Made by a program: the position numbers and the translations under genes
The notes under the pieces: model-generated
Told to the model about the DNA's origin: nothing
What the model saw: only the letters and a program-made list of their open reading frames with translations
The model's database searches: none
Source of the DNA: Pseudogulbenkiania subflava DSM 22618
GTDB lineage: Bacteria; Pseudomonadota; Gammaproteobacteria; Burkholderiales; Chromobacteriaceae
Reading direction: 5' to 3'
Length of the DNA: 32,000 bases
Assembly: GCF_900177275.1 (NCBI RefSeq)
Contig: NZ_FXAG01000009.1
Span: forward strand, 36,984 to 68,983
In this document: positions 3 through 13,042 of the stretch, one piece after another
Position numbering within the stretch: the stretch's first letter is position 1
Layout: every line of letters begins with the position of its first letter

Positions 3-3000
3 AATCCTGCGCTGGAGGGCTTGGTTGGTGCCGAACAGGCAAAACAGTGGCGTCAAGTGGTGGATGAGCTGCTCGGGCGGTCGGCGTTGCGTGCCGCTGA
101 CGTGATTGATGCACTTGGGGCACTCGCAGTACCCCGATTGCGCACCTTGGAGTCATTGCCTGGCGCAAAGACTGAACTCACGCCACAGTCGTCAGCCCTT
201 GTGTCTAGTGCGGTACTGTTTCACCTTACTTTCATAGGTCAGGCGATCGGTGAAGATCTACGTAATCTACAGCAGCTGCGACCGAATGGCACAGGGCTCG
301 AAACCGCACTGAGGCTCAATAACACGACGAATGATGTAGCGAAGCCAGCAATGCCAGTGCGCGAGATCGACCGCTATTTTACCGTGCACAGTGACCCCTC
401 TCAGGAGGAGGCGGTGTTACTCGCACGGGACGTACCCGGACGACTTATCGAGGGGCCGCCTGGTACCGGTAAGAGCCAGACTATCGTCAATATGGTGGGG
501 GATGCAATCGGACGTCGCCGTAGCATGCTCATTGTTTGCCAGAAGCATGCTGCGCTAGAGGTGGTCTACAAGCGTCTGGTGGCCGAAGGCCTCGGCAATC
601 GTATCATCATGGTGAATGATGTGAACCGCGATCGAAACCCAGTAATCCGGGCCGTTCGAGAGCAGATCGAGGAACTGGTGCGACGTTCCCATGATGCTGC
701 GGCACCAATTCGACGAAAGCGTGATGAGATAGCGGCGCGAATTGAGGCTCTTGAAGGGATCCTGGATCGTCACCACGAGGCCCTACACCAAATCGATGAG
801 CATGTTGGGATTAGCTATCGGGCTCTGCTGGGCGAGCTGATCTGTCTTGAGTCACCGACGGGACCGATTGATGTGCCGGCGCTTCGCCCACTTCTGAGTC
901 GCCTCACGACTGGGGCACTTGCAGCGCTTGAAGAGGCGTGCGCGCCACTTGCTCGCTACTGGCTGCCAGCATGCTACGAAGGAAGTGCGCTCTCCATTTT
1001 GCAGGCGTTTACTCCTGATCCGGCCACGCTTGCCGACTTCCATGAAGCGTTCGACACATTTCGAATGGCAGAAGTGACTCGTGCCGATGTGCTGCTTACT
1101 CAACCAGCGCCTTTCGAGGTCGACGATCCTGCTCCACACCGTGCTTGGCTCACGACCTATGGGGATAAATTCCTTGCTCTGCCTGATGCGACACGTTTGT
1201 TGCTCGCCAAATGGTTGCCACTGTTCCGGGAAGCTGCGGGCGAGATGCCCAAGGGACTTGATTACCTCAAGCAGCTCGCGACTTTGCGCGAGACGCTCAC
1301 TACCTGCAATGAGGCAGATTTCTCAGAGAAACTGTCGGTGGCGGCCAGCGCTCTCGAGCCCGCTGCACTGGACACTCTCTATGCATATACGGTTGAGACC
1401 TGCGCGCCACTGCGGTGGATTGACCATCTGAATTTCAAACGGCACTTGCGCCGGCGTCTGGTGAATGTCTTTCTTATCGAGCAGGGCGCGATCCCAGATG
1501 CACCTCATGTAGCGCGTCTGAAGCGTGTACTGGAACTTGAAAGGCAGTGGCGTCCGCTGCGTAAGGCACTCGGGGAGTTGCACCAAGCATTGCAACTGCC
1601 TGCGATTGCTTCTGATGCGGGGCCGGCGTTGCTTAAGGATGCAACGGCAAGCTATGAGTTATTGCACCAAGTCGCCGAGCTTGCCTCTTTGCTCGCCAAA
1701 GCCCCTTGGCCCGACCGGGTGGACGCCGTTGCCAAAAGTGCGACGCACTCAGCCTTCCTCTCTCATTTTGCCGAGTACGATGCGGCATTCGCCCGGCACG
1801 CAGCGAGGACGGCGAGCCGTCAAGCACTCGCCCGGCTTGAGGGATGGACCATGCCTGAATGGTTTGTTGGCTGCGACTACGCGATTAATGACAATGAACC
1901 CAACCTGGCGAGGATCGCTCCGATCGAGTCGGCACTCCCCACGCTCGCTGCTTACCAGCAATTTCGTGGCCGTGCCGAGCGGCTCTCCGAGCAAGAGCTG
2001 GCCGCCTTTGCGGTGCTGCGCGGCAAGGAGGAGCTGCTGCGACTCATCCACCCAACGGAGCTCGAAGGAGAGATGCGCCGCATCCTTAACCGCGAAGCCC
2101 GTCTCGGCTGGAAACGAGTCATGGAGCAGGCTTCCCCGGATCTTGAACATGACCGAGAGGATCTTGAGAGCAAGGTAGCTATGCTTGCTCAGCTTGACCG
2201 CGAGATGCGTGAGCTTAACCGGCAGCTCCTGCGAGAGGATTATGATCTCGCGCAGATCCGGCCGCTGCGGGAGTGGGAAGACATCACACGGCTCACCGGT
2301 CAACGAGCTCGGCGACTGCGTGAATTCATCGATCGAGGCACTAGCCTGGGGCTCATGAAGCTGCGACCAGTCTGGTTGATGAACCCGGATGTGGCAAGCC
2401 GTGTACTGCCTCTCAAAGCACAGCTTTTCGATACGGTGATCTATGACGAGGCGTCTCAGATGCCCGTGGAATACGCTCTGCCGTCGCTGTTTCGGGCTGG
2501 CGTGTGCGTGGTCAGCGGCGATGAGAAGCAGATGCCGCCAACTGCATTTTTCTCGGGCCGTGTCGAAAGTGATGAAGGTCAGGTCTTCGATGGTGTGGAA
2601 CCGGACGAAGATGCAAGTGAAGAGGAGCAAGAAGCATTTGATGAAACCTGGAACCGGCGCGAGATCAAGGACTGCCCGGACCTGTTACAGCTCGCGCGCG
2701 GGTGTCTGCCCGCTTCCCGTCTTGCAATTCACTACCGATCGGCCTATCGCGAGTTGATTGGCTATTCGAATTCCGCCTTCTATGGCAACCACCTGCACGT
2801 ACCGGTGCGTCATCCCGAGTCGACCGTGCAGGCGGTGAAACCAATCGAACTGGTCGAAGTGGGAGGCACTTACCACGAGCAGACCAATCTCGATGAAGCC
2901 GAACGTGTGGTCGACATTCTCTCCGATATCTGGCGTAAACCACGAGACACATGGCCCTCGGTCGGAGTGGTGACTTTTAACCGCAAGCAGGCGGATCTGA

Positions 3001-3809
3001 TTGAAGAGCGTCTGGAAGCACGGGCTGAACTGGACGAGGCGTTCCGCGAAGCATATCGGTTGGAGTGCGAGCGGGTCGAAGACGGCGAAGATATGGGCGT
3101 GTTCGTCAAGAACGTGGAAAACGTACAGGGCGATGAACGCGATGTGATTGTGTTTTCTTCAACCTTCGGCCGCAATCGCCAAGGCTCCTTCCTACGCAGC
3201 TTCGGCGTACTCGGCCAGAAAGGCGGTGAGCGCCGCCTCAATGTCGCGGTGACCCGCTCTCGGCAGAAGGTTGTAATGGTCACCTCGATGCCGATCGACG
3301 ACATCTCCGATTTGCTCTCGACTCATCGCCCACCTGCTACTCCGCGTGACTACCTGCAGGGATACATGGCCTATGCTCGCGCCGTTTCAACAGGGCAACT
3401 CGGCCTCTCACGATCGCTGCTACAGCGTTGGACTGTGAGCTGCGACGGTGGCCGCGGGCATACAGCTGAGAGGGTAGGCGACGGTTTTACCGAAGCGGTT
3501 TCAGCATATGTCCGTTCACTCGGCTTTACCGTGAGCGAGAGCGTTGAGAATGATGTGTTTGGCCTCGATTTTGCGGTGGAGCATCCACAGACGGGGTTGT
3601 TTGCGATCGGCATTGAGTGCGATGCGCCGCGCCATGACCTGCTCGGCCGTGCCCGGGCCCGGGAGGTGTGGCGCCCTAACGTACTGCGCCGCGCTGTGCC
3701 CATGATTCACCGTGTTTCCTCGCAGGCATGGTATGGCAGTGGTGATGCGGAGCGCTTGCGCCTGCTGCAGGCGATCGAAAAGGCATTACAGATGGAGGTT
3801 GTCCAATGA
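3..3809 (+). CDS. SF1 (Upf1/DNA2-like, AAA_11/AAA_12-type) helicase with a C-terminal DUF559/MTES_1575-like PD-(D/E)xK endonuclease-fold domain; 5' end lies outside the window
   Basis: The frame is open from nt 3, with no stop before the track's TTG at 21. SF1B helicase motif set: Walker A GPPGTGKSQT (453-476), motif II VIYDEASQM (DEASQ 2445-2459), SGDEKQMPPT, HYRS, VENVQGDERDVIVFS, RLNVAVTRSRQKVVMV. About 650 aa are inserted between Walker A and motif II. The C-terminal FGLDFAVEH...IGIECDAPRH...IHRVSSQAWY (core 3567-3623) resembles the Vsr/DUF559 nuclease fold. Confidence 0.85.
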   Translation, partial: NPALEGLVGAEQAKQWRQVVDELLGRSALRAADVIDALGALAVPRLRTLESLPGAKTELTPQSSALVSSAVLFHLTFIGQAIGEDLRNLQQLRPNGTGLETALRLNNTTNDVAKPAMPVREIDRYFTVHSDPSQEEAVLLARDVPGRLIEGPPGTGKSQTIVNMVGDAIGRRRSMLIVCQKHAALEVVYKRLVAEGLGNRIIMVNDVNRDRNPVIRAVREQIEELVRRSHDAAAPIRRKRDEIAARIEALEGILDRHHEALHQIDEHVGISYRALLGELICLESPTGPIDVPALRPLLSRLTTGALAALEEACAPLARYWLPACYEGSALSILQAFTPDPATLADFHEAFDTFRMAEVTRADVLLTQPAPFEVDDPAPHRAWLTTYGDKFLALPDATRLLLAKWLPLFREAAGEMPKGLDYLKQLATLRETLTTCNEADFSEKLSVAASALEPAALDTLYAYTVETCAPLRWIDHLNFKRHLRRRLVNVFLIEQGAIPDAPHVARLKRVLELERQWRPLRKALGELHQALQLPAIASDAGPALLKDATASYELLHQVAELASLLAKAPWPDRVDAVAKSATHSAFLSHFAEYDAAFARHAARTASRQALARLEGWTMPEWFVGCDYAINDNEPNLARIAPIESALPTLAAYQQFRGRAERLSEQELAAFAVLRGKEELLRLIHPTELEGEMRRILNREARLGWKRVMEQASPDLEHDREDLESKVAMLAQLDREMRELNRQLLREDYDLAQIRPLREWEDITRLTGQRARRLREFIDRGTSLGLMKLRPVWLMNPDVASRVLPLKAQLFDTVIYDEASQMPVEYALPSLFRAGVCVVSGDEKQMPPTAFFSGRVESDEGQVFDGVEPDEDASEEEQEAFDETWNRREIKDCPDLLQLARGCLPASRLAIHYRSAYRELIGYSNSAFYGNHLHVPVRHPESTVQAVKPIELVEVGGTYHEQTNLDEAERVVDILSDIWRKPRDTWPSVGVVTFNRKQADLIEERLEARAELDEAFREAYRLECERVEDGEDMGVFVKNVENVQGDERDVIVFSSTFGRNRQGSFLRSFGVLGQKGGERRLNVAVTRSRQKVVMVTSMPIDDISDLLSTHRPPATPRDYLQGYMAYARAVSTGQLGLSRSLLQRWTVSCDGGRGHTAERVGDGFTEAVSAYVRSLGFTVSESVENDVFGLDFAVEHPQTGLFAIGIECDAPRHDLLGRARAREVWRPNVLRRAVPMIHRVSSQAWYGSGDAERLRLLQAIEKALQMEVVQ

Positions 3810-5161
3810 GTGGCCCGAAGGTTGTTCGTATCGTCACGCGGGAAGAACGCATCGCCATAGGCCAGCGACAACTAGCGGAACTTGACCGCTGTATCGAGGC
3901 ATGGCAACGGGCGGTAGCAATGGCAGGCGTTGAGGTAGGCGCAACGATTGCGAAAACCACTGCACACCGGACCAAGTTCCAGACGTTGCTAGCCGACGAC
4001 AAGTTTATGGAGCTGGGGCAACAAGTAGCGAGCGAAGTGGCATATCTGAAGTCCGAGACCGAGCGCTTGCAAGAGGTGGCAATCCAAGCCGCCGCCGAGA
4101 GAAAGGCCAACCGACTGCGTTTACGAGAAAACGCGGTGGTGCTCATCAAGGCCCTCAAGGAAAAAGGGCGAACCGAGAATGAGCCGCTTCTTGCCCGGCT
4201 CGAAGCGGTGCGTAGTGGACAAGGGGAGGTTACCGATATGGAGGTGTGCCTTTCCGAGGCGTTGCGAGCGCTCACCCCAGAGAAAAATGAAGTGATGCTC
4301 ACCGACGTCCAACGTGCACTTGCAGCGCGGCTCAATGAACCGGGTGAGGTGACAACTTTTGACGCTTGGAAAGCCGCGAATGCGGCACCGCTCGACTCTC
4401 GTATCGATCGTATCTACCGACAGTTAGCAGAGCTCGAACTCGCCGGGTTGCTTCCCGCTGCAGCGGTGTTTTCCAAGCGGCTGGAAGCAGTCGAGGAAGT
4501 AGTAGATATGCCAACGCGCAACCTGCGGCTCGATAGCCTGGTGCTCGATCTCGCGACGGCGGTGTGCGAGGCTAAGGCAGAGATGATGCTCATTGAGGAG
4601 GCTAGGGGGCTTGTAGCAGAACTTTCCGTGCGCGAGGAGGCTATCTGTCAGGAAATGGGCACTCAGCTCGAAGCGGCGCTGGGTGCGCGCGATATAACAG
4701 CATTGTCGGACCGGCTAAAAGCAGCAAAAGAAGCGCTTACTGCCGCACACATAGCCGCCGCCGCTGAGGCTCGCAGGCGTGTTCTTCTCGAAGGACTCGC
4801 GAAACTTGGATATTCGGTCCACGAAGGCATGGCCGGTGCTTGGGCAGAGAAGGGCCGCATTGTGCTGCAGAAGCCTTCGCTGCCTGGCTATGGGGTTGAA
4901 ATCGGTGGAAACACTGAAGGCGAGCGACTACAAGTTCGGGCTGTTGCTTTCTCCGCTGATCGGGACACTGCTCGCGACCGTGATGTTGAAACGATCTGGT
5001 GCGGGGAGTTTTCTAAACTACAGGAGGATTTAGCAGTAATTGGCGGGGGGCTAGATATCGAGCGGGCTCTCCTTGTGGGTTCAACGCCACTCAAGGTTGT
5101 TTCTATGACGGAGGAAAAATATGAACAGAGAAGAGTGGAGCACCACCAATTAAACCGGTGA
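3806..5161 (+). CDS. hypothetical protein: long Ala/Glu/Leu/Arg-rich predicted helical or coiled-coil region plus a C-terminal globular part of about 100 aa; translationally coupled to the helicase
   Basis: ATG 3806 overlaps the helicase stop (ATGA, 3806-3809). GGAGG lies at 3794-3798, 7 nt upstream. The ORF is 451 aa and uninterrupted. I recognise no catalytic motif. Confidence 0.7.
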   Translation: MSGPKVVRIVTREERIAIGQRQLAELDRCIEAWQRAVAMAGVEVGATIAKTTAHRTKFQTLLADDKFMELGQQVASEVAYLKSETERLQEVAIQAAAERKANRLRLRENAVVLIKALKEKGRTENEPLLARLEAVRSGQGEVTDMEVCLSEALRALTPEKNEVMLTDVQRALAARLNEPGEVTTFDAWKAANAAPLDSRIDRIYRQLAELELAGLLPAAAVFSKRLEAVEEVVDMPTRNLRLDSLVLDLATAVCEAKAEMMLIEEARGLVAELSVREEAICQEMGTQLEAALGARDITALSDRLKAAKEALTAAHIAAAAEARRRVLLEGLAKLGYSVHEGMAGAWAEKGRIVLQKPSLPGYGVEIGGNTEGERLQVRAVAFSADRDTARDRDVETIWCGEFSKLQEDLAVIGGGLDIERALLVGSTPLKVVSMTEEKYEQRRVEHHQLNR

Positions 5162-5237
5162 GCACTTGCAGCCTGATCAGGCTAAATGTCAGTTTCAGCG
5201 CACAATCCTGCGCCTCGCACCCTGTCGGTAATATCGA

Positions 5238-5267
5238 TTGATATGCAGACATTCGCGACTATATAAA
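5238..5267 (+). promoter_or_regulatory. candidate sigma70 promoter for the 5294 gene
   Basis: TTGATA (5238-5243), then a 17-18 nt spacer, then ATATAA/TATAAA (5261-5267), about 27 nt upstream of ATG 5294. This is the first AT-rich sequence after the GC-rich helicase operon. Confidence 0.45.
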
Positions 5268-5293
5268 TACTGTTAAATTTTGAGATACATCTC

Positions 5294-6124
5294 ATGAAAT
5301 ACTCAATTTACCTATCCGAAGAGGACAAGAAACAGCTCGAATATGAGGTTGTGTCGCAAGAGTTTCGGGTTCACTTAACCCGCCTTATTGAGCGAAATGA
5401 GAATTTCGCCCGGCACTTCTTCATGAATCAGAACTGGCTGATCAATCGCTCCAGAACATTGATCGGCAAAGCTATATACGTTTTGCAGGCCGATGACATG
5501 GGTGGGTACGAAGACTGCGAATACGCTTGGCACAATGGCGAATTTGAGCTTTGCTTTCGCCGCCTTGATACCAGCCGTTTAATTGAACTACTCTGTGAGG
5601 TAATAGATAGGAAATGGCTTGTCAGGAAAGATATAAACAACCTCCTGGAGCAAGAAGGAGCGTCTTTCCGCTTTGTAAAAGGAGCGGGCACAGAAGTCGA
5701 GGTGATTTCGATTGAGAAACTCGAAGAAGATGCTCCTCAGTCAAATGAACATCCAAACATCAGGGTTTTGGTCAATAGAATGGCTTCTGCGCTAGATAAT
5801 TTAGATTACGCTGGCGTTCTTCATTCTAGTGCATCTATATTCGAAACGCTTGCCAAGGATGTGGTCGGAATTGCAAGCGTACAAGGTCAAACATTGGCAA
5901 GTTTCTTTGATCGATACAAAAAAGATTCTCAGCTCCCTGCAGAAATTCAGGCCAAGGTTTTGGAGACATACAAGTCAAGGAATTCAACGCCTTTGGCTGG
6001 GCATGGAAGTACGCAGGCACCTTTGATATCAAAAGAGGAAGCGGTTACTTTGTGTGAATTGACAAAAGCTTTTGTCCGAATTGAATACCACCTACTAGCT
6101 GATAAGGTAGATGCAAAGAGCTAA
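5294..6124 (+). CDS. AbiJ-like abortive-infection protein with a C-terminal Abi_C/HEPN-type motif
   Basis: 276-aa ORF in the AT-rich block. The C-terminal half carries YKSRNSTPLAGHGS (5978-6007), which matches the RN....GHG signature I recall for the Abi_C/AbiJ HEPN clade. The N-terminal half (LIELLCEVIDRKW...SFRFVKGAGTEVEVISIE) resembles AbiJ N-terminal domains. Assignment is by motif only. Confidence 0.6.
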   Translation: MKYSIYLSEEDKKQLEYEVVSQEFRVHLTRLIERNENFARHFFMNQNWLINRSRTLIGKAIYVLQADDMGGYEDCEYAWHNGEFELCFRRLDTSRLIELLCEVIDRKWLVRKDINNLLEQEGASFRFVKGAGTEVEVISIEKLEEDAPQSNEHPNIRVLVNRMASALDNLDYAGVLHSSASIFETLAKDVVGIASVQGQTLASFFDRYKKDSQLPAEIQAKVLETYKSRNSTPLAGHGSTQAPLISKEEAVTLCELTKAFVRIEYHLLADKVDAKS

Positions 6125-6182
6125 CAAGCTTAGCCGTTAGGCACCCAAAAACTAGTTCTTTTAGATTGATTTTGCCAGACTT

Positions 6183-6211
6183 TTGACGTGAGTAATGCAT
6201 ACCGTTATATC
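6183..6211 (+). promoter_or_regulatory. candidate sigma70 promoter for the 6229-7130 micro-operon
   Basis: TTGACG (6183-6188), a 17-nt spacer, TATATC (6206-6211), followed by AGGAG (6215-6219) and TTG start 6229. Confidence 0.45.
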
Positions 6212-6228
6212 TATAGGAGTTAGATTTC

Positions 6229-6603
6229 TTGAGAGAATACAGATTTAAAATCTTGCAAGAAGGTGATTTCTTGTGCGGCCTCAGCGAGAAAGAAATGATA
6301 ATCCGTAACGCCAATGGCGATTATCATATTCACAAATTGTGCGGGCTTGATGGAGGTAAGCCAAGTTTCTTTAAGAGTTTCGAGGTTGTGGCGATACACG
6401 ACATTGAAGATGCATCTGAAAAAGTTACCTTAATTAAATTTGGCGAAGAATATAGAGCCTACAAAATTATCGGAATCCGGGAAGGGTTTCCGACTTTTGA
6501 CGAGAGCTTCTGCATTGTTGTAAAGCGTGGCATCGGGAAAATTGAGGTTTACGACTCGGAGACTGATCTTACTATTACTCTCCCTGCTATGGAGGGTGAA
6601 TAA
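6229..6603 (+). CDS. hypothetical protein (124 aa), first gene of the small AT-rich operon
   Basis: TTG start 9 nt after AGGAG (6215-6219). Its stop TAA (6601-6603) overlaps the next ATG by 1 nt. No motif recognised. The start codon is uncertain; an internal Met at MIIRNANG is possible. Confidence 0.5.
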   Translation: MREYRFKILQEGDFLCGLSEKEMIIRNANGDYHIHKLCGLDGGKPSFFKSFEVVAIHDIEDASEKVTLIKFGEEYRAYKIIGIREGFPTFDESFCIVVKRGIGKIEVYDSETDLTITLPAMEGE

Positions 6604-6863
6604 TGTCTAAAGAAGAAAAATGGGCTGCAAACATCGCGTTTGTTGGAAGCAAGGAAAAGGTGAAGGAGATTTTAAAAATGATAGAAAAGCTTGAAGAGCA
6701 AGGAGAGCTTGAGGACTATACAGGAATTGAGGGGCCATATGACTCTTTGCAATTGATGCTGAAGCGAAGAAATGAGAACCTGGCCCTTGAGGTTGGAGTA
6801 AATAACACCCAAGGCCAATTGAATGTCACTGGGGATTCATCGCAAATTGATGCAGATTCATGA
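6603..6863 (+). CDS. hypothetical small acidic protein (86 aa)
   Basis: ATG 6603 overlaps the upstream stop (TAATG). Its stop TGA 6861-6863 runs directly into the GGAGG of the next gene. No motif recognised. Confidence 0.5.
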   Translation: MSKEEKWAANIAFVGSKEKVKEILKMIEKLEEQGELEDYTGIEGPYDSLQLMLKRRNENLALEVGVNNTQGQLNVTGDSSQIDADS

Positions 6864-6872
6864 GGAGGTGTG

Positions 6873-7130
6873 ATGAACAGGCCGAGTGATCACCGGAAGG
6901 CACAAAACCAAAGAAGGATAATTGATTTAAATATGTGCCAGTTATGCGCATCGACAATTGGAGTTCAAGCACACCACATCTTTGAGTATGCAAAAGGAGG
7001 TCCTTCAACAATAGAAGGTATGATATGCCTTTGCTTGGATTGCCATCAAAGAATGGTACACAGAGATAGCCAAATACGAATCAAGAAGAGAGAAAATCGG
7101 ATAACAACATTTGGACGGGGTGGAGGTTGA
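6873..7130 (+). CDS. minimal stand-alone HNH endonuclease (about 85 aa)
   Basis: CQLC...AHHIFEYAKGGPSTIEGMICLCLDCHQRMVH gives CxxC, then HH (6972-6977), then N/G, then CxxCH, the beta-beta-alpha-metal HNH signature. GGAGG lies at 6864-6868. The track's GTG at 6870 sits too close to this SD, so ATG 6873 is preferred. Confidence 0.75.
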   Translation: MNRPSDHRKAQNQRRIIDLNMCQLCASTIGVQAHHIFEYAKGGPSTIEGMICLCLDCHQRMVHRDSQIRIKKRENRITTFGRGGG

Positions 7131-7383
7131 AATACAGGCCATTTCATTAAATGCCTGCAAGCGGACATAGCTAAGGACATACCAGAGATCGGCGGCTTTC
7201 TGACAAGTAGCGGCTAATGTCGCGAGGAATACGCACGGCAGCTTGAATCGATGACTTGAACCCAGCCGCCGCTCAGTCATAGTCGCCGTTAACGAACAGA
7301 ATCATAATGTCTGCTTGGTGCAAATTACAGACATTCCTTTATGTCAAAGAAAAAAACGCAATTAAGAATGCGAATAATTAAAA

Positions 7384-8625
7384 TTATTGGCGATCTATTT
7401 TTATAGCCATGGCCATTTCAGTGTCCGGGATTGAACTGAAATAGTCCTCATATCCGGAGAATTCATCATCTCCTGGAATGGTGCCGCCATTCAAATAAAT
7501 TGGCGGTCTTTTGAGTCCCATTATAAGTGGATTAAGGCTTTTCTGCTCCGCAAGACGCTGCGCATTACCCCGCAGTGCATTGGAAATGCTTTCAAAATAC
7601 CCGCCGAACTCATTTGCCATGCTTCTAAGTTTTTTGCAATACCCATCGTACATTAGATCAAAATAGTTATTACGTTCGTTTTTCCAAAAAGGAAGCAATG
7701 TAAATATTTCATTGACATCATTGTAATTTGTTAATTTGTGCAAATTCATTACAATAAAATAATATAAAATTTCACGTGGCCATTCACGGTTCAGCCTGAT
7801 AACATCTCTGTATTTCGCATCTTTATTGAGCTCGAAAGCGCATTTCTCTGCAGATGTTCGTAAAAAGTCATCAGGCATCATTAGGATAAAGGCCGATATC
7901 GCAGAAGCCATTCTATAGGCGGTCAACACGTCAGGCTCTCCTTTCTGCAAAGCCACAAAATGTGCCAGTGAATGATACTCTGGTAATTTCGAGTCATATA
8001 CGAACTTTGAAAACTCTTCAGTCAGGACTCTCTTCTCGACTACCCACGATTCGTCGTTTCTACTCAGCGCAACCCCTTCAATTAGCTCTTGCCATACTGC
8101 ATTGACCTCTAGCATGCTACCCAAATAAAGAGGAGATTTGCAAAAGTGACGGCGTTCGTTTCCTTTAAAAAAACAAAGTGAGAGATGTTCAATTTGTTCA
8201 AAAAATACAGGAATGCTCCTAGTGGAAACTATGCGCCATGGCAGTTCTGGAGTATTCACGGATTTATCCTTGAATACTTCTAGGCTGATGTTTTTCTTAA
8301 CCTCCCAGATTGCCTTTCTGTCCTTTGAGTTCTTCGCCAGTCTGAAAATATAATTTAAAATGGATAGCCCTCCTGGAGTGCAGTGCATGTCGACCCAGTG
8401 CCGAAATTCATGGACAACAGGTCTCAAAAGATCTTTAACAATATCATTTACATCTTCGCAGCGCTTCCATTTCTCCAAAAGCGTTAAAAATGACGATGTA
8501 TTGATTTGAAGTTGGATTATCTGGTTTAAATGACCATAGTAGGCGACTGAAGATTGGAGGCACGTGAAATCAGGACTTGGAAGTGAGATATTTGAAGGAG
8601 TGGGCGCGGAATTAAAAAATGACAT
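7384..8625 (-). CDS. hypothetical protein (413 aa) with an HExxH motif (possible Zn-metallopeptidase-like)
   Basis: Long uninterrupted ORF in very AT-rich DNA, convergent with the HNH operon. It carries VVHEFRHWVDMH (HEFRH encoded by 8398-8412 on the minus strand). No other recognisable motif, so the family is unknown. Confidence 0.6.
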   Translation of the reverse strand: MSFFNSAPTPSNISLPSPDFTCLQSSVAYYGHLNQIIQLQINTSSFLTLLEKWKRCEDVNDIVKDLLRPVVHEFRHWVDMHCTPGGLSILNYIFRLAKNSKDRKAIWEVKKNISLEVFKDKSVNTPELPWRIVSTRSIPVFFEQIEHLSLCFFKGNERRHFCKSPLYLGSMLEVNAVWQELIEGVALSRNDESWVVEKRVLTEEFSKFVYDSKLPEYHSLAHFVALQKGEPDVLTAYRMASAISAFILMMPDDFLRTSAEKCAFELNKDAKYRDVIRLNREWPREILYYFIVMNLHKLTNYNDVNEIFTLLPFWKNERNNYFDLMYDGYCKKLRSMANEFGGYFESISNALRGNAQRLAEQKSLNPLIMGLKRPPIYLNGGTIPGDDEFSGYEDYFSSIPDTEMAMAIKIDRQ

Positions 8626-8800
8626 AAGAGATTTCGATTAAAAATTAACAAATTCCATATTTTGTGACTACCGGCAGCTTGTGTTTCTCTACGCTTTAGG
8701 ACATGTAAAAAGTAGAGTGCACGGCAGATTGCAGCGCGAACCGGTCACTTTAATGATGGCTTTACAGGAAGGTACAGCGGTAGTTCCTAGCGATAGTGGA

Positions 8801-9110
8801 CATGCTAGCACATAGACATGTTCGTCTGCTTTAGCAGAACCATTGTGGCGGCCTGCCATGCGTCTGTTCTACCCGGATACCGGGCGTTGACGCTTTGACT
8901 GATCGGTCGGAAACAGGGGAGCGCGTGTGCGCATCCCCTGGTACAGAAAGCCGACTCCCGGTGCCAATGACAAAGAAATTGTCTGAATGTGGCCTTGGTC
9001 TGACTCCGGGTGGATGGGGTGGGCGAGCTGCGTTTGCCGACCTCTCGCCAGCATCACTTGACGGGTAGTCGGTCGGCCTTAGCAGACATTCATGCCCATG
9101 TGCTAGCATG
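8801..9110. repeat. GC-rich element of about 310 bp bounded by imperfect 35-bp inverted repeats (MITE-like or IS-end remnant)
   Basis: Left arm 8801-8835 is catgctagcacatagacatgttcgtctgctttagc. Reverse complement of right arm 9076-9110 is catgctagcacatgggcatgaatgtctgctaaggc. The outermost 13 positions are identical and 27/35 match overall. The interior has no convincing ORF and contains strong local hairpins, e.g. ggggagcgc-gtgt-gcgcatcccc around 8917-8939. Confidence 0.4.
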
Positions 9111-9165
9111 ACTATTGCCGGCCACAAGCGGATTAACGCCCTACATCGCAACCCTGGACGCAAGT

Positions 9166-9831
9166 ATGATCACTCTGCCGAAGTTCTTTCTCGCCTTGGC
9201 CAAACGCGGTTGGGCACAGCATGTAATTGAGGGCTTGGAGGGTGATGCTGTCGTTAGTGAACTCAACCGCGTTGGAGATCTTCTTGGAACACGTATCAGA
9301 GGGCGGACCGCTTCGCTCATGGAGGTTGTTCGTCCTCAAGCCGTAGATGATGCTCATCCGCGATCCTTGAGCGCGCGGTACGGTTTTGGTGCGTTACCGT
9401 TCCACGCCGAACTAAGCCACAGACCTCGGCCCTGCCGCTATGTCCTTCTGGGCTGCATAGAACCTGGCCCGCTAAGCACAGCGACGCTGCTGCTCGATTG
9501 GAGAGCCCTCGACTTTTCACCCGAGGAGCTTCACCTTCTCGAAAGCGCACCGATCTTTGTTCGAACTGGCCGGCGCTCATTCTACTCAACCATACTGTCT
9601 TCCGACCGCTCCTTCCTTCGATATGATCCTGGCTGCATTGAAGCCATTGATATGCGTGGACAAGCAGCCCTGCGACTCGTAGAACAACGGCTGGCTGAAG
9701 GTTTACCAGAAGTTCATCATTGGCACAGGGGCGACATTCTGATCATTGATAACTGGCGCGTTCTGCATGGGCGCGGGACGTCGGAACAAGACACTGGTCG
9801 GTGCTTAGCAAGGATACTTATCGATGCCTAG
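9166..9831 (+). CDS. TauD/TfdA-family Fe(II)/2-oxoglutarate dioxygenase-like protein
   Basis: PFHAELSH (His 9403-9405, Glu 9409-9411) together with HHWHRGDILIIDNWRVLHGRG (His 9766-9768) gives the HxD/E...H facial triad and the DNWR(V/L)LHGR signature seen in TauD/gamma-butyrobetaine-hydroxylase-type enzymes. ATG 9166 is preferred over the track's TTG 9115, which lies just past the right inverted-repeat arm (9076-9110), with nothing but that arm upstream of it. Confidence 0.7.
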   Translation: MITLPKFFLALAKRGWAQHVIEGLEGDAVVSELNRVGDLLGTRIRGRTASLMEVVRPQAVDDAHPRSLSARYGFGALPFHAELSHRPRPCRYVLLGCIEPGPLSTATLLLDWRALDFSPEELHLLESAPIFVRTGRRSFYSTILSSDRSFLRYDPGCIEAIDMRGQAALRLVEQRLAEGLPEVHHWHRGDILIIDNWRVLHGRGTSEQDTGRCLARILIDA

Positions 9832-10762
9832 CGATGTCTTTATTGCAATAAACAGCGATGCGCTTTATACGATGTCAAAGGTTTACATCGGCCGTGCACT
9901 GCTCAGAAAAGGGAGCAGCGATCTTGATGAATATCAGCTCTGGGCTTCGCTCGCGCTGGAACTGCTAGGAAAAGCTGCGCTCGCACATAAGCACCCGAGC
10001 CTCGTCGTCGATCCAACCCATTCCCCATCGATGTTTGTCGCAGCCGGCATCAATGTCACGACCGATGTAAAAACCATCACTGCGAAGACCTTATTCGAAC
10101 GCCTCGCACATCTCGTTCCAAGGTTCGACAAAACCATCCAGAAATTTTGCCTGGAAATTTCAGAACGTCGCAACGCTGAACTTCACTCCGCCGACATCCC
10201 ATTCCGGGCCATGCGACTCGACGCTTGGGAAGCCCGCTACTGGCATGCCTGCGACACAATTCTTCTCCATATGGGTTCTTCGCTGGAGCAATGGTTAGGT
10301 GCTGCGGATGCTAAGGCTCCACGTCATTTGCTCGATGAAGCGGCCAAAGCACTTGATGCAGCAGTGAAGCTACGCGTTGAGGCCGCCAAGGAGCAATTCG
10401 AAGCACTGAAGAAGGTCGAGCGTGATCGCCTGATGGCGGAGGCTGAGTTGCGGGAGCCTCAACACCTGGCTGGCCTTTTCAAAGGTAGTTACGATGAAAT
10501 TTGGAAAGAATGCTGCCCAGCATGTAAATGCCGTGCTTTTATGACTGGCGAACAGACTGGGGAAGACATTAATGAAGAGTGGGACGAAGATGCAATATGG
10601 GAAATTGTCGATCGCGAATTTGTTGGCGAAGAGTTTCACTGCCCGACATGCGACCTAACTCTCATGGGAAGCGATGAGATCAATGCAGCGGGTGTGAGCT
10701 ACATCCACAAAGATCAGCAGGAGCGCGAGATGGAGTACGAGCCAGACTACGGCAATGACTAG
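9824..10762 (+). CDS. HEPN-domain protein (Rx4H RNase motif) with a central coiled coil and a C-terminal 4-Cys zinc ribbon
   Basis: ATG 9824 overlaps the dioxygenase stop TAG 9829-9831 (ATGCCTAG), with AGGA at 9811-9814. The N-terminus is helical, with ALELLGKAALAHK and EISERRNAELHS (RNAELH 10169-10186), the canonical HEPN R-N-x3-H. The C-terminus has CCPACKC (10511-10531) and CPTC (10640-10651) followed by an acidic tail. Confidence 0.7.
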   Translation: MPSDVFIAINSDALYTMSKVYIGRALLRKGSSDLDEYQLWASLALELLGKAALAHKHPSLVVDPTHSPSMFVAAGINVTTDVKTITAKTLFERLAHLVPRFDKTIQKFCLEISERRNAELHSADIPFRAMRLDAWEARYWHACDTILLHMGSSLEQWLGAADAKAPRHLLDEAAKALDAAVKLRVEAAKEQFEALKKVERDRLMAEAELREPQHLAGLFKGSYDEIWKECCPACKCRAFMTGEQTGEDINEEWDEDAIWEIVDREFVGEEFHCPTCDLTLMGSDEINAAGVSYIHKDQQEREMEYEPDYGND

Positions 10763-11064
10763 ACTAGGCAGCGGTGCTGCATGAAAAAATCAGCAAGAGT
10801 TGCGGCCTTCAAGCGAGAACGAAAAATGGCGAGTCACCGCTCAACATATGGGGGCGGAACAGCCGAGTCGGGTCGAAAGTCCGAGATCCTGAGGGGCGAA
10901 TGCCGAAATTCGGTGCAGTGACAGGAAAGTGGCCGGTATGTGGCTCTGAGCAGACGTTCAGGCCAGATGGGGCAGCCAACCGCTTTGGCCGAAAAGCCGA
11001 GGCCCGTACGCGCATTGGTCAGTGACTATTTCGTAAACGACTACATTCCCAGGCCCTGAAAAAG

Positions 11065-11088
11065 GCCCTGCTTTTGCAGGGCTTTTTT
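11065..11088. terminator. bidirectional Rho-independent terminator at the island/core junction
   Basis: gccctgc-tttt-gcagggc (11065-11082) is followed by TTTTTT (11083-11088) on the plus strand. On the minus strand the same stem is followed by cttttt, so it can terminate nrdB as well as plus-strand island transcripts. Confidence 0.7.
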
Positions 11089-11101
11089 CAGGTTGTCAAG
11101 T

Positions 11102-11164: not shown

Positions 11165-11180
11165 TTTTTGACAATTGGCG

Positions 11181-12263
11181 TTAATCCCAGCTCAGCGCGC
11201 CGCCAGTCTGGTACTCCGTAACCCGCGTCTCGAAGAAGTTCTTTTCCTTCTTCAGATCAATCATCTCGGACATCCACGGGAACGGGTTGGTCACGCCGGG
11301 GAACATCGGCTCCAGGCCGATCTGCTGCATGCGGCGGTTGGCGATGAAGCGCAGGTATTCCTTGAACATGGCGGCGTTGAGGCCGAGCACGCCGCGCGGC
11401 ATGGTGTCTTCGGCGTAGGCGTATTCCAGCTCCACCGCGTGCTTGAACAGGCCGGTGATCTCGGCCTTGAATTCTTCGGTCCAGAGCTGCGGGTTTTCCT
11501 GCTTCACGGTGTTGATCAGGTCGATGCCGAAGTTGCAGTGCATGGACTCGTCGCGCAGGATGTACTGGTACTGTTCGGCGGCGCCGGTCATCTTGTTCTG
11601 GCGGCCCAGCGCCAGGATCTGCACGAAGCCGACGTAGAAGAACAGGCCTTCCATGATGCAGGCGAACACGATCAGCGACTTGAGCAGTTGCTGGTCGGTT
11701 TCGGTGGTGCCGGTCTTGAATTCCGGGTTGCACAGGGTGTCGATGAACGGGATCAGGAACTCGTCCTTGTCACGGATGGACTTGATCTCATGGTAGGCAT
11801 TGAACACTTCGCCTTCGTCCAGGCCGAGCGATTCGACGATGTACTGGTAGGCGTGGGTGTGGATGGCTTCGTCGAAGGCCTGGCGCAGCAGGAACTGGCG
11901 GCATTCCGGCGCGGTGATCTGGCGGTAGGTGCCGAGCACGATGTTGTTGGCGGCGAGGCTGTCGGCGGTGACGAAGAAGCCGAGGTTGCGCTTCACGAGG
12001 CGCATTTCATCTTCGGACAGTTGGCCGGTCTTCCACTGTTCGATGTCGCGCTGCATGTTCACTTCTTGCGGCATCCAGTGGTTGGCGCACTGCGCCAGGT
12101 ATTTTTCCCAGGCCCACTTGTACTTGAACGGGACGAGCTGGTTGACGTCGGTCTGGCCGTTGATGACGCGCTTGTCGCTGGCGTTGACGCGGCCGGTGCC
12201 GTGGGCGTCCATCGAGTTGTTGGCGGCGGTAACGGGGGTGATCGGGTCTTCAAAGCTCAGCAT
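11181..12263 (-). CDS. nrdB: ribonucleoside-diphosphate reductase class Ia beta subunit
   Basis: 360 aa. Sequence includes [57 protein letters not shown] and the C-terminal [11 protein letters not shown], typical of R2. AGGAG lies upstream of the ATG. Confidence 0.95.
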
Positions 12264-12299
12264 GCTAACTCCTGGTTATTCTTTCTAAAGTGTTTCGGT

Positions 12300-12335
12300 G
12301 GGCTTCGGCCAACCTTCAAAGGTTGGCCGAAGCCC
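12300..12335. repeat. REP-like perfect hairpin, family A (GGTTGGCCGAAGC core)
   Basis: gggcttcggccaacc-ttcaaa-ggttggccgaagccc, a 15-bp perfect stem in the intergenic region upstream of nrdB. The same arms recur at 13670-13697, with a collapsed copy at 29503-29519. Confidence 0.8.
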
Positions 12336-12466
12336 GATGTTTCAATGCCATTCCGAAACCGGCTCGGCGGAGCCGGCTTGAGAATGGAACAGGGAGCATG
12401 TGCCTGTCGGTCGAGGGATGGGTTGCGCTGTGCTTCACCCATCCTACGGTCACCTGCCTGTCTGTT

Positions 12467-13042
12467 TCAGTAGCCGCCGCTGACCTTGCCGGTGAGCGGG
12501 CGGATGGCGATCGACGACAAGTCATTCACCTTCCACACCCGGCGCATGTGCCCGAAGTCACGGCGCTGGGCGTCGCGCAATTCCACTTCCGACCGGTAGT
12601 TGAGGTCGAACCACACTTCGCCGAGGTAGACCGTTTCGCCCGCGCGGATGTCGAACGGCTTGTGCAGCGCAAAGTGCGTGATGCGGCGGTAAGAAGACCA
12701 CCACAAATCGTCATCGCTCCACTGGCCCCAGGCGTCCTGCAGTTCGTAGCGCCCCGGAGGCAGCGCTACCAGTTGTAGCTTTCCTTCCGCCGGGCTCATG
12801 CCTTCTTCGCCGAACACGGTGTCGGTGTTGAAGCTGGCCCAGACCGTGCCATGCCGGCTGTTATCCAGACCGCGCCAGTTGAGGTCGGCGCTGGCGCTGT
12901 CCGGGGTGAAGGTGCGCACCGTCATCGAAAAGATCGCGTAGCCCTGGCCCGGCGGCGGCTTCAGCGAGCCGTGCAATTGGTCGGCCATGGTGGTGCAGCC
13001 GGCGAGTAGGGCGATGACACACAGCAGCAGTAAACGGCGCAT
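12467..13042 (-). CDS. predicted lipoprotein of unknown function
   Basis: MRRLLLLCVIALLAGC has a signal peptide and a LAGC lipobox. GAGGAG lies 6-7 nt upstream of ATG 13042, which is preferred over the track start at 13072. GC content is host-like. Confidence 0.75.
   Translation of the reverse strand: MRRLLLLCVIALLAGCTTMADQLHGSLKPPPGQGYAIFSMTVRTFTPDSASADLNWRGLDNSRHGTVWASFNTDTVFGEEGMSPAEGKLQLVALPPGRYELQDAWGQWSDDDLWWSSYRRITHFALHKPFDIRAGETVYLGEVWFDLNYRSEVELRDAQRRDFGHMRRVWKVNDLSSIAIRPLTGKVSGGY

Follow-up and report, generated by a model that had tools for sequence, protein, structure and literature searches.

Bacterial immunity and toxin-antitoxin systems use HEPN RNases as one of their commonest kinds of effector, and the central question about each such enzyme is what restrains it. 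Controls known so far comprise protein antitoxins, AMPylation by MNT nucleotidyltransferases, cyclic-oligoadenylate sensing and Abi partners. Here we describe a two-gene unit, A-B, in a stretch of 32,000 nucleotides (nt) from the genome of Pseudogulbenkiania subflava DSM 22618 (contig NZ_FXAG01000009.1, positions 36,984 to 68,983 of the forward strand). The full stretch is called the window, and all positions are window coordinates unless a locus is named. Gene A encodes a small Fe(II)/2-oxoglutarate (2OG) oxygenase, and gene B encodes a probable HEPN protein. We lean towards the view that A-B is an autonomous, horizontally mobile conflict module (defence, abortive infection or toxin-antitoxin), in which a HEPN RNase effector is governed by an oxygenase controller, possibly via hydroxylation of the effector's tail.

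In the HepT-MntA pair of Shewanella (SO_3166/SO_3165; structures 7bxo and 6m6w), an enzyme partner neutralises the HEPN RNase toxin by covalent modification. MntA is a nucleotidyltransferase and AMPylates a tyrosine beside the HepT active site. A gene order with an MntA-like gene upstream and co-translated would parallel A-B. HepT is the best structural match to the N-terminal domain of B (Foldseek, not significant). The pairs differ in that A is an Fe(II)/2OG oxygenase and not an MNT protein, and in that B is larger, with a linker, a zinc-ribbon domain and a tail.

HEC-08 is a validated single-gene defence system, a DUF3644-type HEPN protein with C-terminal zinc-ribbon-like domains. Its protective effect depends on the motif His (Rx4-6H; Payne et al., bioRxiv 10.1101/2024.01.29.577857). 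It shares with B the N-terminal HEPN and C-terminal zinc-ribbon-like domains and an occurrence in defence loci. Among the 90 diverse relatives over which all B conservation was counted (24-64% identical to the window protein), PADLOC gave only weak matches, to HEC-08 in 3/90 (best E=1.3e-3) and to DUF3644 in 8/90 (best 1.6e-4). The window B itself has no HEC-08 match. HEC-08 is monogenic, whereas an intact, tailed B always has A, and the YGND-COOH tail of B is not reported for HEC-08. The Ishtar anti-plasmid proteins are likewise monogenic and combine a HEPN domain (DUF4145 or DUF3644) with a C-terminal beta-rich domain (bioRxiv 10.64898/2026.07.06.735840). Compared by description only, they resemble B in the N-terminal HEPN, the C-terminal beta domain and a patchy, defence-associated spread, and differ in being a single gene with no oxygenase partner described. 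AbiV (9bj6/9bj7), from a Lactococcus antiphage system with two components, acts as a HEPN RNase effector in abortive infection. It ranks high among the structural matches of B, but the match is not significant (E ~1) and AbiV has neither a zinc-ribbon domain nor an oxygenase partner. It also lacks the canonical motif His (PMC3710099). By these comparisons, the closest described logic is that of the HEPN-MNT pairs, and the closest architectures those of HEC-08 and Ishtar.

On the side of gene A, the closest characterized enzymes are the clavaminate-synthase-like hydroxylases AsnO (2og5), VioC (2wbo), KDO1 (6f2a) and clavaminate synthase 1 (CAS1, 1drt). They share with A the HxD/E...H triad, the motif DNxRxxH(G/A)R and an R-x3-R pair. 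These enzymes are 324-358 amino acids (aa) long, have their genes in biosynthetic clusters and use free amino acids as substrates, whereas A has 221 aa and is found only beside B.

Taken together, A and B fit no single system catalogued in PADLOC-DB v2. The matches of B were marginal only, and no PADLOC-DB v2 model matched the A family even at E<=1. Literature searches pairing TauD/TfdA/2OG oxygenases with HEPN, anti-phage or defence retrieved no paper describing A-B. The preliminary description of the window had stated that no known system joins a HEPN protein to a TauD-family oxygenase, and this holds, as we found no paper linking TauD with HEPN. We infer that A-B is a HEPN-effector conflict module with an unprecedented partner class. 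Its features are as follows, with secondary structure taken from an AlphaFold2 (AF2) model of B.

9166-9831, + strand: gene A, 221-aa minimal TauD/clavaminate-synthase-like Fe(II)/2OG oxygenase (PF02668)
9403-9411, + strand: H80-A81-E82, first two iron ligands (HxD/E), from conservation and alignment to solved enzymes
9766-9813, + strand: H201 (third iron ligand), R203, R212 and R216, from conservation; R212 and R216 form the R-x3-R pair
9810-9831, + strand: A/B junction, AAGGA ribosome-binding site for B inside A, then ATGCCTAG, read from the sequence
9824-10762, + strand: gene B, 312-aa HEPN-like protein with a probable zinc-ribbon domain, from the AF2 model
9845-10273, + strand: N-terminal HEPN-like domain of B, residues ~8-150, from the AF2 model
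9872-9874, + strand: M17 codon of B, where this copy alone replaces a near-invariant lysine
9959-9973, + strand: E46-x3-K50, acidic Ex3[KR] motif of helix 2, from conservation in the 90 relatives
10169-10186, + strand: R116-N-A-E-L-H121, Rx4H motif closing helix 3, from conservation in the 90 relatives
10301-10450, + strand: long helical linker of B, residues ~160-209 (model helices 160-193 and 197-209)
10496-10729, + strand: C-terminal beta-domain with two CxxC knuckles (C231, C234, C273, C276; model strands 225-302)
10730-10759, + strand: flexible acidic C-terminal tail, ending E-P-D-Y-G-N-D-COOH, from conservation and low model confidence

In a first set of 46 genome loci with B, each locus that has a full-length B also has A directly upstream on the same strand. 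Over all the loci examined, more distant versions included, 42 distinct ones have an intact, tailed B, and A holds this position at 42/42. The pair occurs in Proteobacteria, Actinomycetota, Planctomycetota and Armatimonadota. Sequence identity of B is 49% in a Chthonomonadales metagenome-assembled genome (MAG), 42% in a Planctomycete MAG, 40% on Pseudomonas aeruginosa megaplasmids, 32% on a Sinorhizobium chiapasense plasmid, 29% on a Streptomyces anulatus plasmid, 27-29% on metagenomic contigs and 25% on a Ralstonia solanacearum megaplasmid. Homologues of B were found on 33 plasmid records and on no phage record. Co-occurrence elsewhere had been named beforehand as a check on the pairing, and the pair is present at every intact locus, in four phyla and with B down to ~25-29% identity. 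With the exception of one gene, trlF, which is discussed below, the flanking genes vary between loci. It could be argued that A and B are unrelated neighbours that hitch-hike together. We regard this as highly improbable, given adjacency at all 42 intact loci with overlapping frames, down to ~25% identity and in four phyla, while the other neighbours change.

Two further settings were considered and rejected. The other genes of the island in the window, encoding the 413-aa, HNH, 276-aa, 124-aa, 451-aa and helicase proteins, are absent from the related loci and are not parts of the module. Nor does A belong to a metabolic cluster, such as one for taurine or carnitine utilisation, which would have spoken against a conflict role. 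The neighbours at 41 loci are variable and, trlF aside, hold no common metabolic genes, and no such setting was seen at the examined loci.

An A-B pair is also found on the megaplasmid of Ralstonia solanacearum Po82 (L066, 2862-4765), in Moko and plantain strains, where B ends in ...YEDDNNE-COOH. A paper on Ralstonia outbreaks lists among acquired genes a 'TauD/TfdA family dioxygenase', read there as herbicide degradation, and a 'CxxC motif protein'; these may be A and B.

Gene A runs from the ATG at 9166 to the TAG at 9829-9831, and gene B from the ATG at 9824 to the TAG at 10760-10762, both on the + strand. A longer form of A, starting at a TTG at 9115, is possible, but we prefer the start at 9166 because homologues have 215-228 aa. 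The ATG of B and the TAG of A overlap by 8 nt in ATGCCTAG at 9824-9831. The AAGGA Shine-Dalgarno sequence of B (9810-9814) lies within A, 9 nt before the B start. The geometry of the 8-nt overlap is identical in ~27 related loci, and more distant pairs have a 4-nt overlap or a 1-nt gap. The guanine-cytosine (GC) content of the pair is 0.53-0.55, compared with 0.40-0.45 in the DNA upstream and 0.60-0.65 in the nrdB/nrdA core downstream. The preliminary description had reported the two reading frames with their overlap, an intermediate GC content and a defence-like island around the pair. All three observations stand, the last because genes upstream match candidate defence families.

DNA similarity to the closest relative, locus L047 (92%), spans 9150-10853 only and thus starts 16 nt before A. 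Because of these limits of the shared DNA, and because flanking genes differ (trlF aside), we take the unit to consist of A and B alone.

The Pfam TauD family (PF02668) matches A at 50.1 bits (E=4.5e-13), above its gathering threshold of 27, and is carried by 120/120 A homologues among the matches listed. Conservation in the A family was counted over 45 members taken from related loci. H80 and H201, two of the iron ligands, occur in 44/45 each, in the motifs FHAELSH (H80 and E82) and DNWRVLHGR (H201 and R203), and position 82 is E in 30/45 and D in 14/45. An intact triad in a TauD-family protein had been proposed from the window sequence, and both the family match and the conservation of H80, E82 and H201 bear this out. 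D195, N196, R203, R212 and R216 are invariant (45/45), and six arginines in all are invariant or nearly so (R47, R152, R198, R203, R212 and R216).

Among solved structures, the A-family profile best matches 6daw, a non-heme iron hydroxylase (2e-16). It also matches CAS1 (7e-15), the L-lysine 3-hydroxylase KDO1 (6f2a, 6e-14), the asparagine oxygenase AsnO (2og5, 1e-8) and the arginine hydroxylase VioC (2wbo, 9e-8). The ligand motifs of the facial triad align with those of CAS1, KDO1 and 6daw, the HxE motif falling on FHTE in clavaminate synthase and on LHTE in KDO1. R212 is aligned with the DRWL Arg of CAS1, 6daw and KDO1, and R216 with the second Arg (DRWLHR). These positions would provide the Arg for the 2OG C5 carboxylate, expected ~10-14 residues past the distal His. 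Residues 49-221 of A align to residues 149-335 of KDO1. From these alignments, A would belong to the clavaminate-synthase-like subgroup, with Asn, Arg and Lys beta-hydroxylases as its nearest solved relatives, and it is very probably an active oxygenase, though a minimal one. Among related loci, A is less conserved than B (48-69% versus 73-87% identity). This faster divergence fits a modulator role, as modulators usually evolve in this way.

The AF2 model of B, built from 90 diverse sequences, has a mean predicted local distance difference test score (pLDDT) of 94.9 and a predicted template modelling score of 0.90. It supersedes an earlier model from close homologues, which had a pLDDT of 73 and gave an uninformative fold search. 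In brief, helix 1 (residues 11-30) and helix 2 (34-56) are followed by an insert (57-102), helix 3 (103-121) and helix 4 (132-149), then by a helix of 34 residues, a shorter helix, the beta-domain (225-302) and a floppy tail of low pLDDT. In the HEPN definition of Anantharaman et al. (PMC3710099), an insert separates helices 2 and 3, helix 2 carries an Ex3[KR] motif, and helix 3 ends with Rx4-6H, in which the R is directly followed by a polar residue (N/D/H). B shows the topology of four core helices, Ex3[KR] in helix 2 and RN-x3-H closing helix 3. In a Foldseek search of the PDB, HEPN proteins came out on top, with HepT first (7bxo_F, prob 0.87), and AbiV 9bj6, TT1696 1ufb, 4nqf, ST0689 1wol, Csm6 8jbc and 2q00 among the other top matches, none of them significant singly. 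On topology and motifs, B is probably a divergent HEPN protein; we do not word this more strongly because the fold and profile matches fall short of significance.

A word-indexed search with B gave 1030 matches, the best 120 of which are ~312 aa long, 73-95% identical and come from alpha-, beta- and gammaproteobacteria. An exhaustive profile search gave 1121 clusters at 50% identity, and for 162 of these E was <1e-30. Searches of Pfam and NCBIfam with B gave no family match, and a profile search of the PDB gave nothing significant. E46 is conserved in 90/90 relatives, and all 90 have K or R at position 50. In the second motif (RRNAELH, codons at 10166-10186), R116 is found in 90/90, N117 in 89/90 and H121 in 89/90. 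The four cysteines of CPAC (231/234) and CPTC (273/276) are equally constant, C234, C273 and C276 in 90/90 and C231 in 89/90. The C-terminal domain gave marginal matches to zinc-ribbon Pfam families and to PF0385 (2k5c), and this four-Cys beta-domain is probably a zinc ribbon.

The preliminary description had placed a HEPN motif in an all-helical N-terminal domain, followed by a coiled coil, a four-Cys zinc ribbon and an acidic tail, and had named the fold of B as a point to be checked. The high-confidence model has the HEPN topology with R116-N-A-E-L-H121 ending helix 3, its best PDB matches being HEPN proteins (not significant singly), and the ribbon cysteines and the tail are conserved, the tail as a motif of its own. 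As for the coiled coil, what the model shows there is a long predicted helical stretch (residues ~160-209).

HEPN families usually show little conservation in the insert that separates helices 2 and 3. In close relatives of B, the insert at residues 57-102 (9992-10129) is the best-conserved stretch (PSLVVDPTHWQSMFVAAGINVTTDVKTITAKTLFERL). Unlike the usual HEPN inserts, it may therefore form a binding surface.

The strongest hint to the link between A and B is that the C-terminal tail covaries with A. B ends in [YFW]-x-[ND]-x-COOH in 80/90 diverse relatives, typically as E-P-D-Y-G-N-D and with the consensus [DE]-Y-G-N-[DE]-COOH. Position -2 is Asn in 79/90, position -4 is Tyr in 78/90 and position -5 is Asp or Glu in 79/90. 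A variant tail, ...D-D-N-N-E, forms the protein end in Ralstonia; in two other lineages it is extended by one or two residues. All lineages with this variant carry A. We also found seven tail-less B-like genes at six loci (P0343, P0247, P0365, P0388, P0329 and P0384, and a second paralog beside P0247), and none of them has an A-family open reading frame (ORF) nearby even at E<=10. One of these tail-less proteins has also lost the RNxxxH motif. Tail and A are thus both present at 42 loci and both absent at 6 (Fisher p ~6e-8, uncorrected for phylogeny). At locus L055, two tandem copies (2261-3951 and 4613-6277) each encode a ~230-aa protein followed by a tail-less B-like protein. The two ~230-aa proteins are 65% identical to each other and have no TauD similarity, which suggests that the HEPN-zinc-ribbon scaffold can swap partners. 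Since the tail covaries with A, the sequences point to the tail as the A-B interface.

We suggest the following mechanism for a conflict module. B would be a metal-independent RNase effector, and A would be its enzymatic controller, with a role like that of the MNT nucleotidyltransferase for HepT. The flexible acidic tail of B would be bound in the arginine-rich active site of A, which would hydroxylate one of its residues, the near-invariant penultimate Asn being the prime candidate. We propose that A acts on the tail because its relatives hydroxylate Asn, Arg or Lys, because the arginines suit an acidic ligand and because the N-terminal portion of those relatives appears to be missing from A. 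The activity of B would thereby depend on O2, Fe(II), 2OG and a steady supply of newly made A. On infection, or when the element is lost, B would move to its other state, with RNA cleavage and growth arrest as the outcome. The modification could either silence or license B. This specific proposal, in which A is an enzymatic antitoxin or licensing factor that hydroxylates the penultimate Asn (or the neighbouring Asp or Tyr) of the RNase tail, so that the toxin is gated by O2, Fe(II) and 2OG, is put forward tentatively.

The same relatives of A also support a coupling through a small molecule. Here A would hydroxylate a free metabolite, for example an amino acid, and so make or destroy a ligand that switches B, or A itself would poison metabolism, with the tail serving another purpose such as oligomerisation or autoinhibition. 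The closest solved relatives of A indeed use free L-Asn, L-Arg, L-Lys or beta-lactam precursors, and the R-x3-R pair is common to A and these small-molecule enzymes. Such a coupling leaves the joint gain and loss of tail and A unexplained, however, and the A-B loci have no conserved transporter, ligand-binding domain or biosynthetic neighbour. Moreover, A is without the ~100 N-terminal residues of the small-molecule relatives, which would presumably open its active site. We therefore regard this coupling as rather unlikely.

Several points weigh against a tail-controlled conflict module. TauD enzymes of this subgroup are best known for acting on free or carrier-bound amino acids and not on protein tails. 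A is ~100 residues shorter at its N-terminus than the solved relatives (221 versus 273-399 aa), which makes its competence uncertain. For B, the best match to a HEPN protein in the PDB by Foldseek has E=0.24, and hhalign against a DUF3644 alignment gave a probability of 0.7%, with a template of low diversity (73-91% self-identity). The window B matches the PADLOC DUF3644 model at only E=0.009. The association between tail and partner depends on the seven tail-less genes at six loci and is, as said, uncorrected for phylogeny; in addition, two 5'-truncated B remnants (L027 and L039) retain the tail without A. The window copy of B may also be attenuated. Position 17 is K in 115/115 of the closest full-length homologues and in 88/90 diverse relatives, and M is found only in the window, by a single-base change from AAG to ATG (K17M). 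Finally, searches of phage genomes and of BFVD gave no homologue.

The sole recurrent neighbour of A-B is a TrlF-family AAA-like ATPase (NCBIfam NF045780, E=8e-214), with a partial match to the anti-phage protein Ppl. In ~11 loci, trlF lies 31-61 nt upstream of A in an operon-like trlF-A-B order, with 82-88% identity. These are L051 (plasmid pSinA, 2337-5312), L001, L002, L003, L005, L008-L011, L022 and L036. On the P. aeruginosa megaplasmids, trlF is instead found downstream of B (L052, 7118-9964). Our literature search on TrlF retrieved nothing relevant. These arrangements would fit a three-gene system of the Ppl-like, PHP-ATPase type that is led by TrlF, with A-B as an accessory sub-module and the window as a remnant that has lost the first gene. 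We consider such a dependence improbable. TrlF is absent within 10 kb at ~30/42 loci, including the window and, the P. aeruginosa megaplasmid copy excepted, the most divergent pairs. The shared DNA stops 16 nt before A, and the window holds no trlF remnant.

The remaining neighbours of A-B, in the window or at related loci, include a PDC-S37-like helicase-nuclease, Gabija GajA/GajB and restriction-modification systems of type I and type ISP. Others are AbiV, AbiH, VapBC, HipA, Fic and nSTAND3. Further neighbours are bona fide DUF3644 proteins, a PIN protein, a GIY-YIG nuclease, integrases and coupling proteins of type IV secretion systems. One DUF3644 (HEPN) protein of ~391-399 aa is encoded 28-48 nt downstream of B (L015, 10964-12160; L001, 10984-12165). 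Like B, it is highly conserved, with 74-98% identity across alphaproteobacteria, and its homologues may share contigs with those of B in several cases.

Degraded copies were seen at L025, L027, L036 and L039-L046, where B, and sometimes also A, is frameshifted, truncated or fragmentary. They fit the idea of a costly or toxic cassette that often decays.

A-B might also be a cellular regulatory device and not part of a conflict. It would then serve O2-, iron- or 2OG-responsive RNA processing, or B would be a nucleic-acid-binding zinc-ribbon regulator with a HEPN-like domain that is no toxin. B is unusually conserved for a toxin, as seen in the 73-95% identity across three proteobacterial classes, and neither a phage-encoded homologue nor a known inhibitor was found. 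Set against this are the patchy distribution and horizontal transfer of the pair, with plasmids, integrases and toxin-antitoxin, restriction-modification and Abi genes nearby, and a GC content that differs from that of the host. Degraded A-B copies exist, and the HEPN catalytic residues of B are near-invariant to invariant (89-90/90). We give this explanation little credence. Ranked by likelihood, coupling through a small molecule comes first among the alternatives to a mobile conflict module, followed by dependence on TrlF and then by regulation outside conflict; coincidence is essentially excluded.

The flanks of the unit and the other annotated features of the window are the following.

21-3809: 1262-aa superfamily 1 helicase with a C-terminal MTES_1575 nuclease domain (PADLOC candidate PDC-S37, E=2e-129)
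3806-5161: 451-aa protein, overlapping the helicase by 4 nt, without a match in Pfam, PADLOC or NCBIfam
5294-8625: low-GC (0.40-0.45) block of four genes
6870-7130: 86-aa HNH protein of the low-GC block
7384-8625, - strand: 413-aa orphan without a match in any library
8626-9165, + strand: intergenic region upstream of A, presumably the promoter region; only its last ~16 nt belong to the conserved unit
10763-10853, + strand: 3' flank of ~90 bp, common to the closest relative L047 only and not conserved at the other loci
11055-11092: hairpin between an A-run and a T-run, likely a bidirectional terminator shared with nrdB
11181-12263, - strand: nrdB (Pfam Ribonuc_red_sm, E=6e-92)

The helicase and the 451-aa gene may form a second two-gene defence candidate. 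The low-GC block also encodes a 276-aa protein with weak PDC-S32 and AbiJ_NTD4 matches and a 124-aa orphan. A 432-aa ORF at 11175-12473 on the + strand was ruled out as a gene, being a shadow of nrdB.

A consensus scan upstream of A found no sigma-70-like site, and a search for operator-like palindromes gave one weak inverted repeat only. In the flanks, all Rfam matches to RNA elements were below the gathering score. L047 has a called 49-aa ORF in its 3' flank that matches 10763-10853. The conserved unit is promoterless, and its flanks measure 16 nt on the 5' side and ~90 nt on the 3' side, the latter shared with the nearest relative only. This brings an integron cassette to mind; on inspection by eye, neither core nor inverse-core sites were convincing.

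Annotations everywhere give gene A the generic name 'TauD/TfdA family dioxygenase'. A HEPN-like protein that is widespread and invariably coupled to an Fe(II)/2OG oxygenase, catalytically intact as judged by its residues, would add a new principle to the control of these effectors. If the tail is hydroxylated as we propose, an immune or addiction toxin would be tied to the oxygen and central-carbon status of the cell, and the clavaminate-synthase-like enzymes would be extended from small molecules to a protein substrate. The pair would then be a prokaryotic counterpart of the hydroxylation switches of the FIH/HIF type and represent a new class of toxin control, by post-translational hydroxylation.

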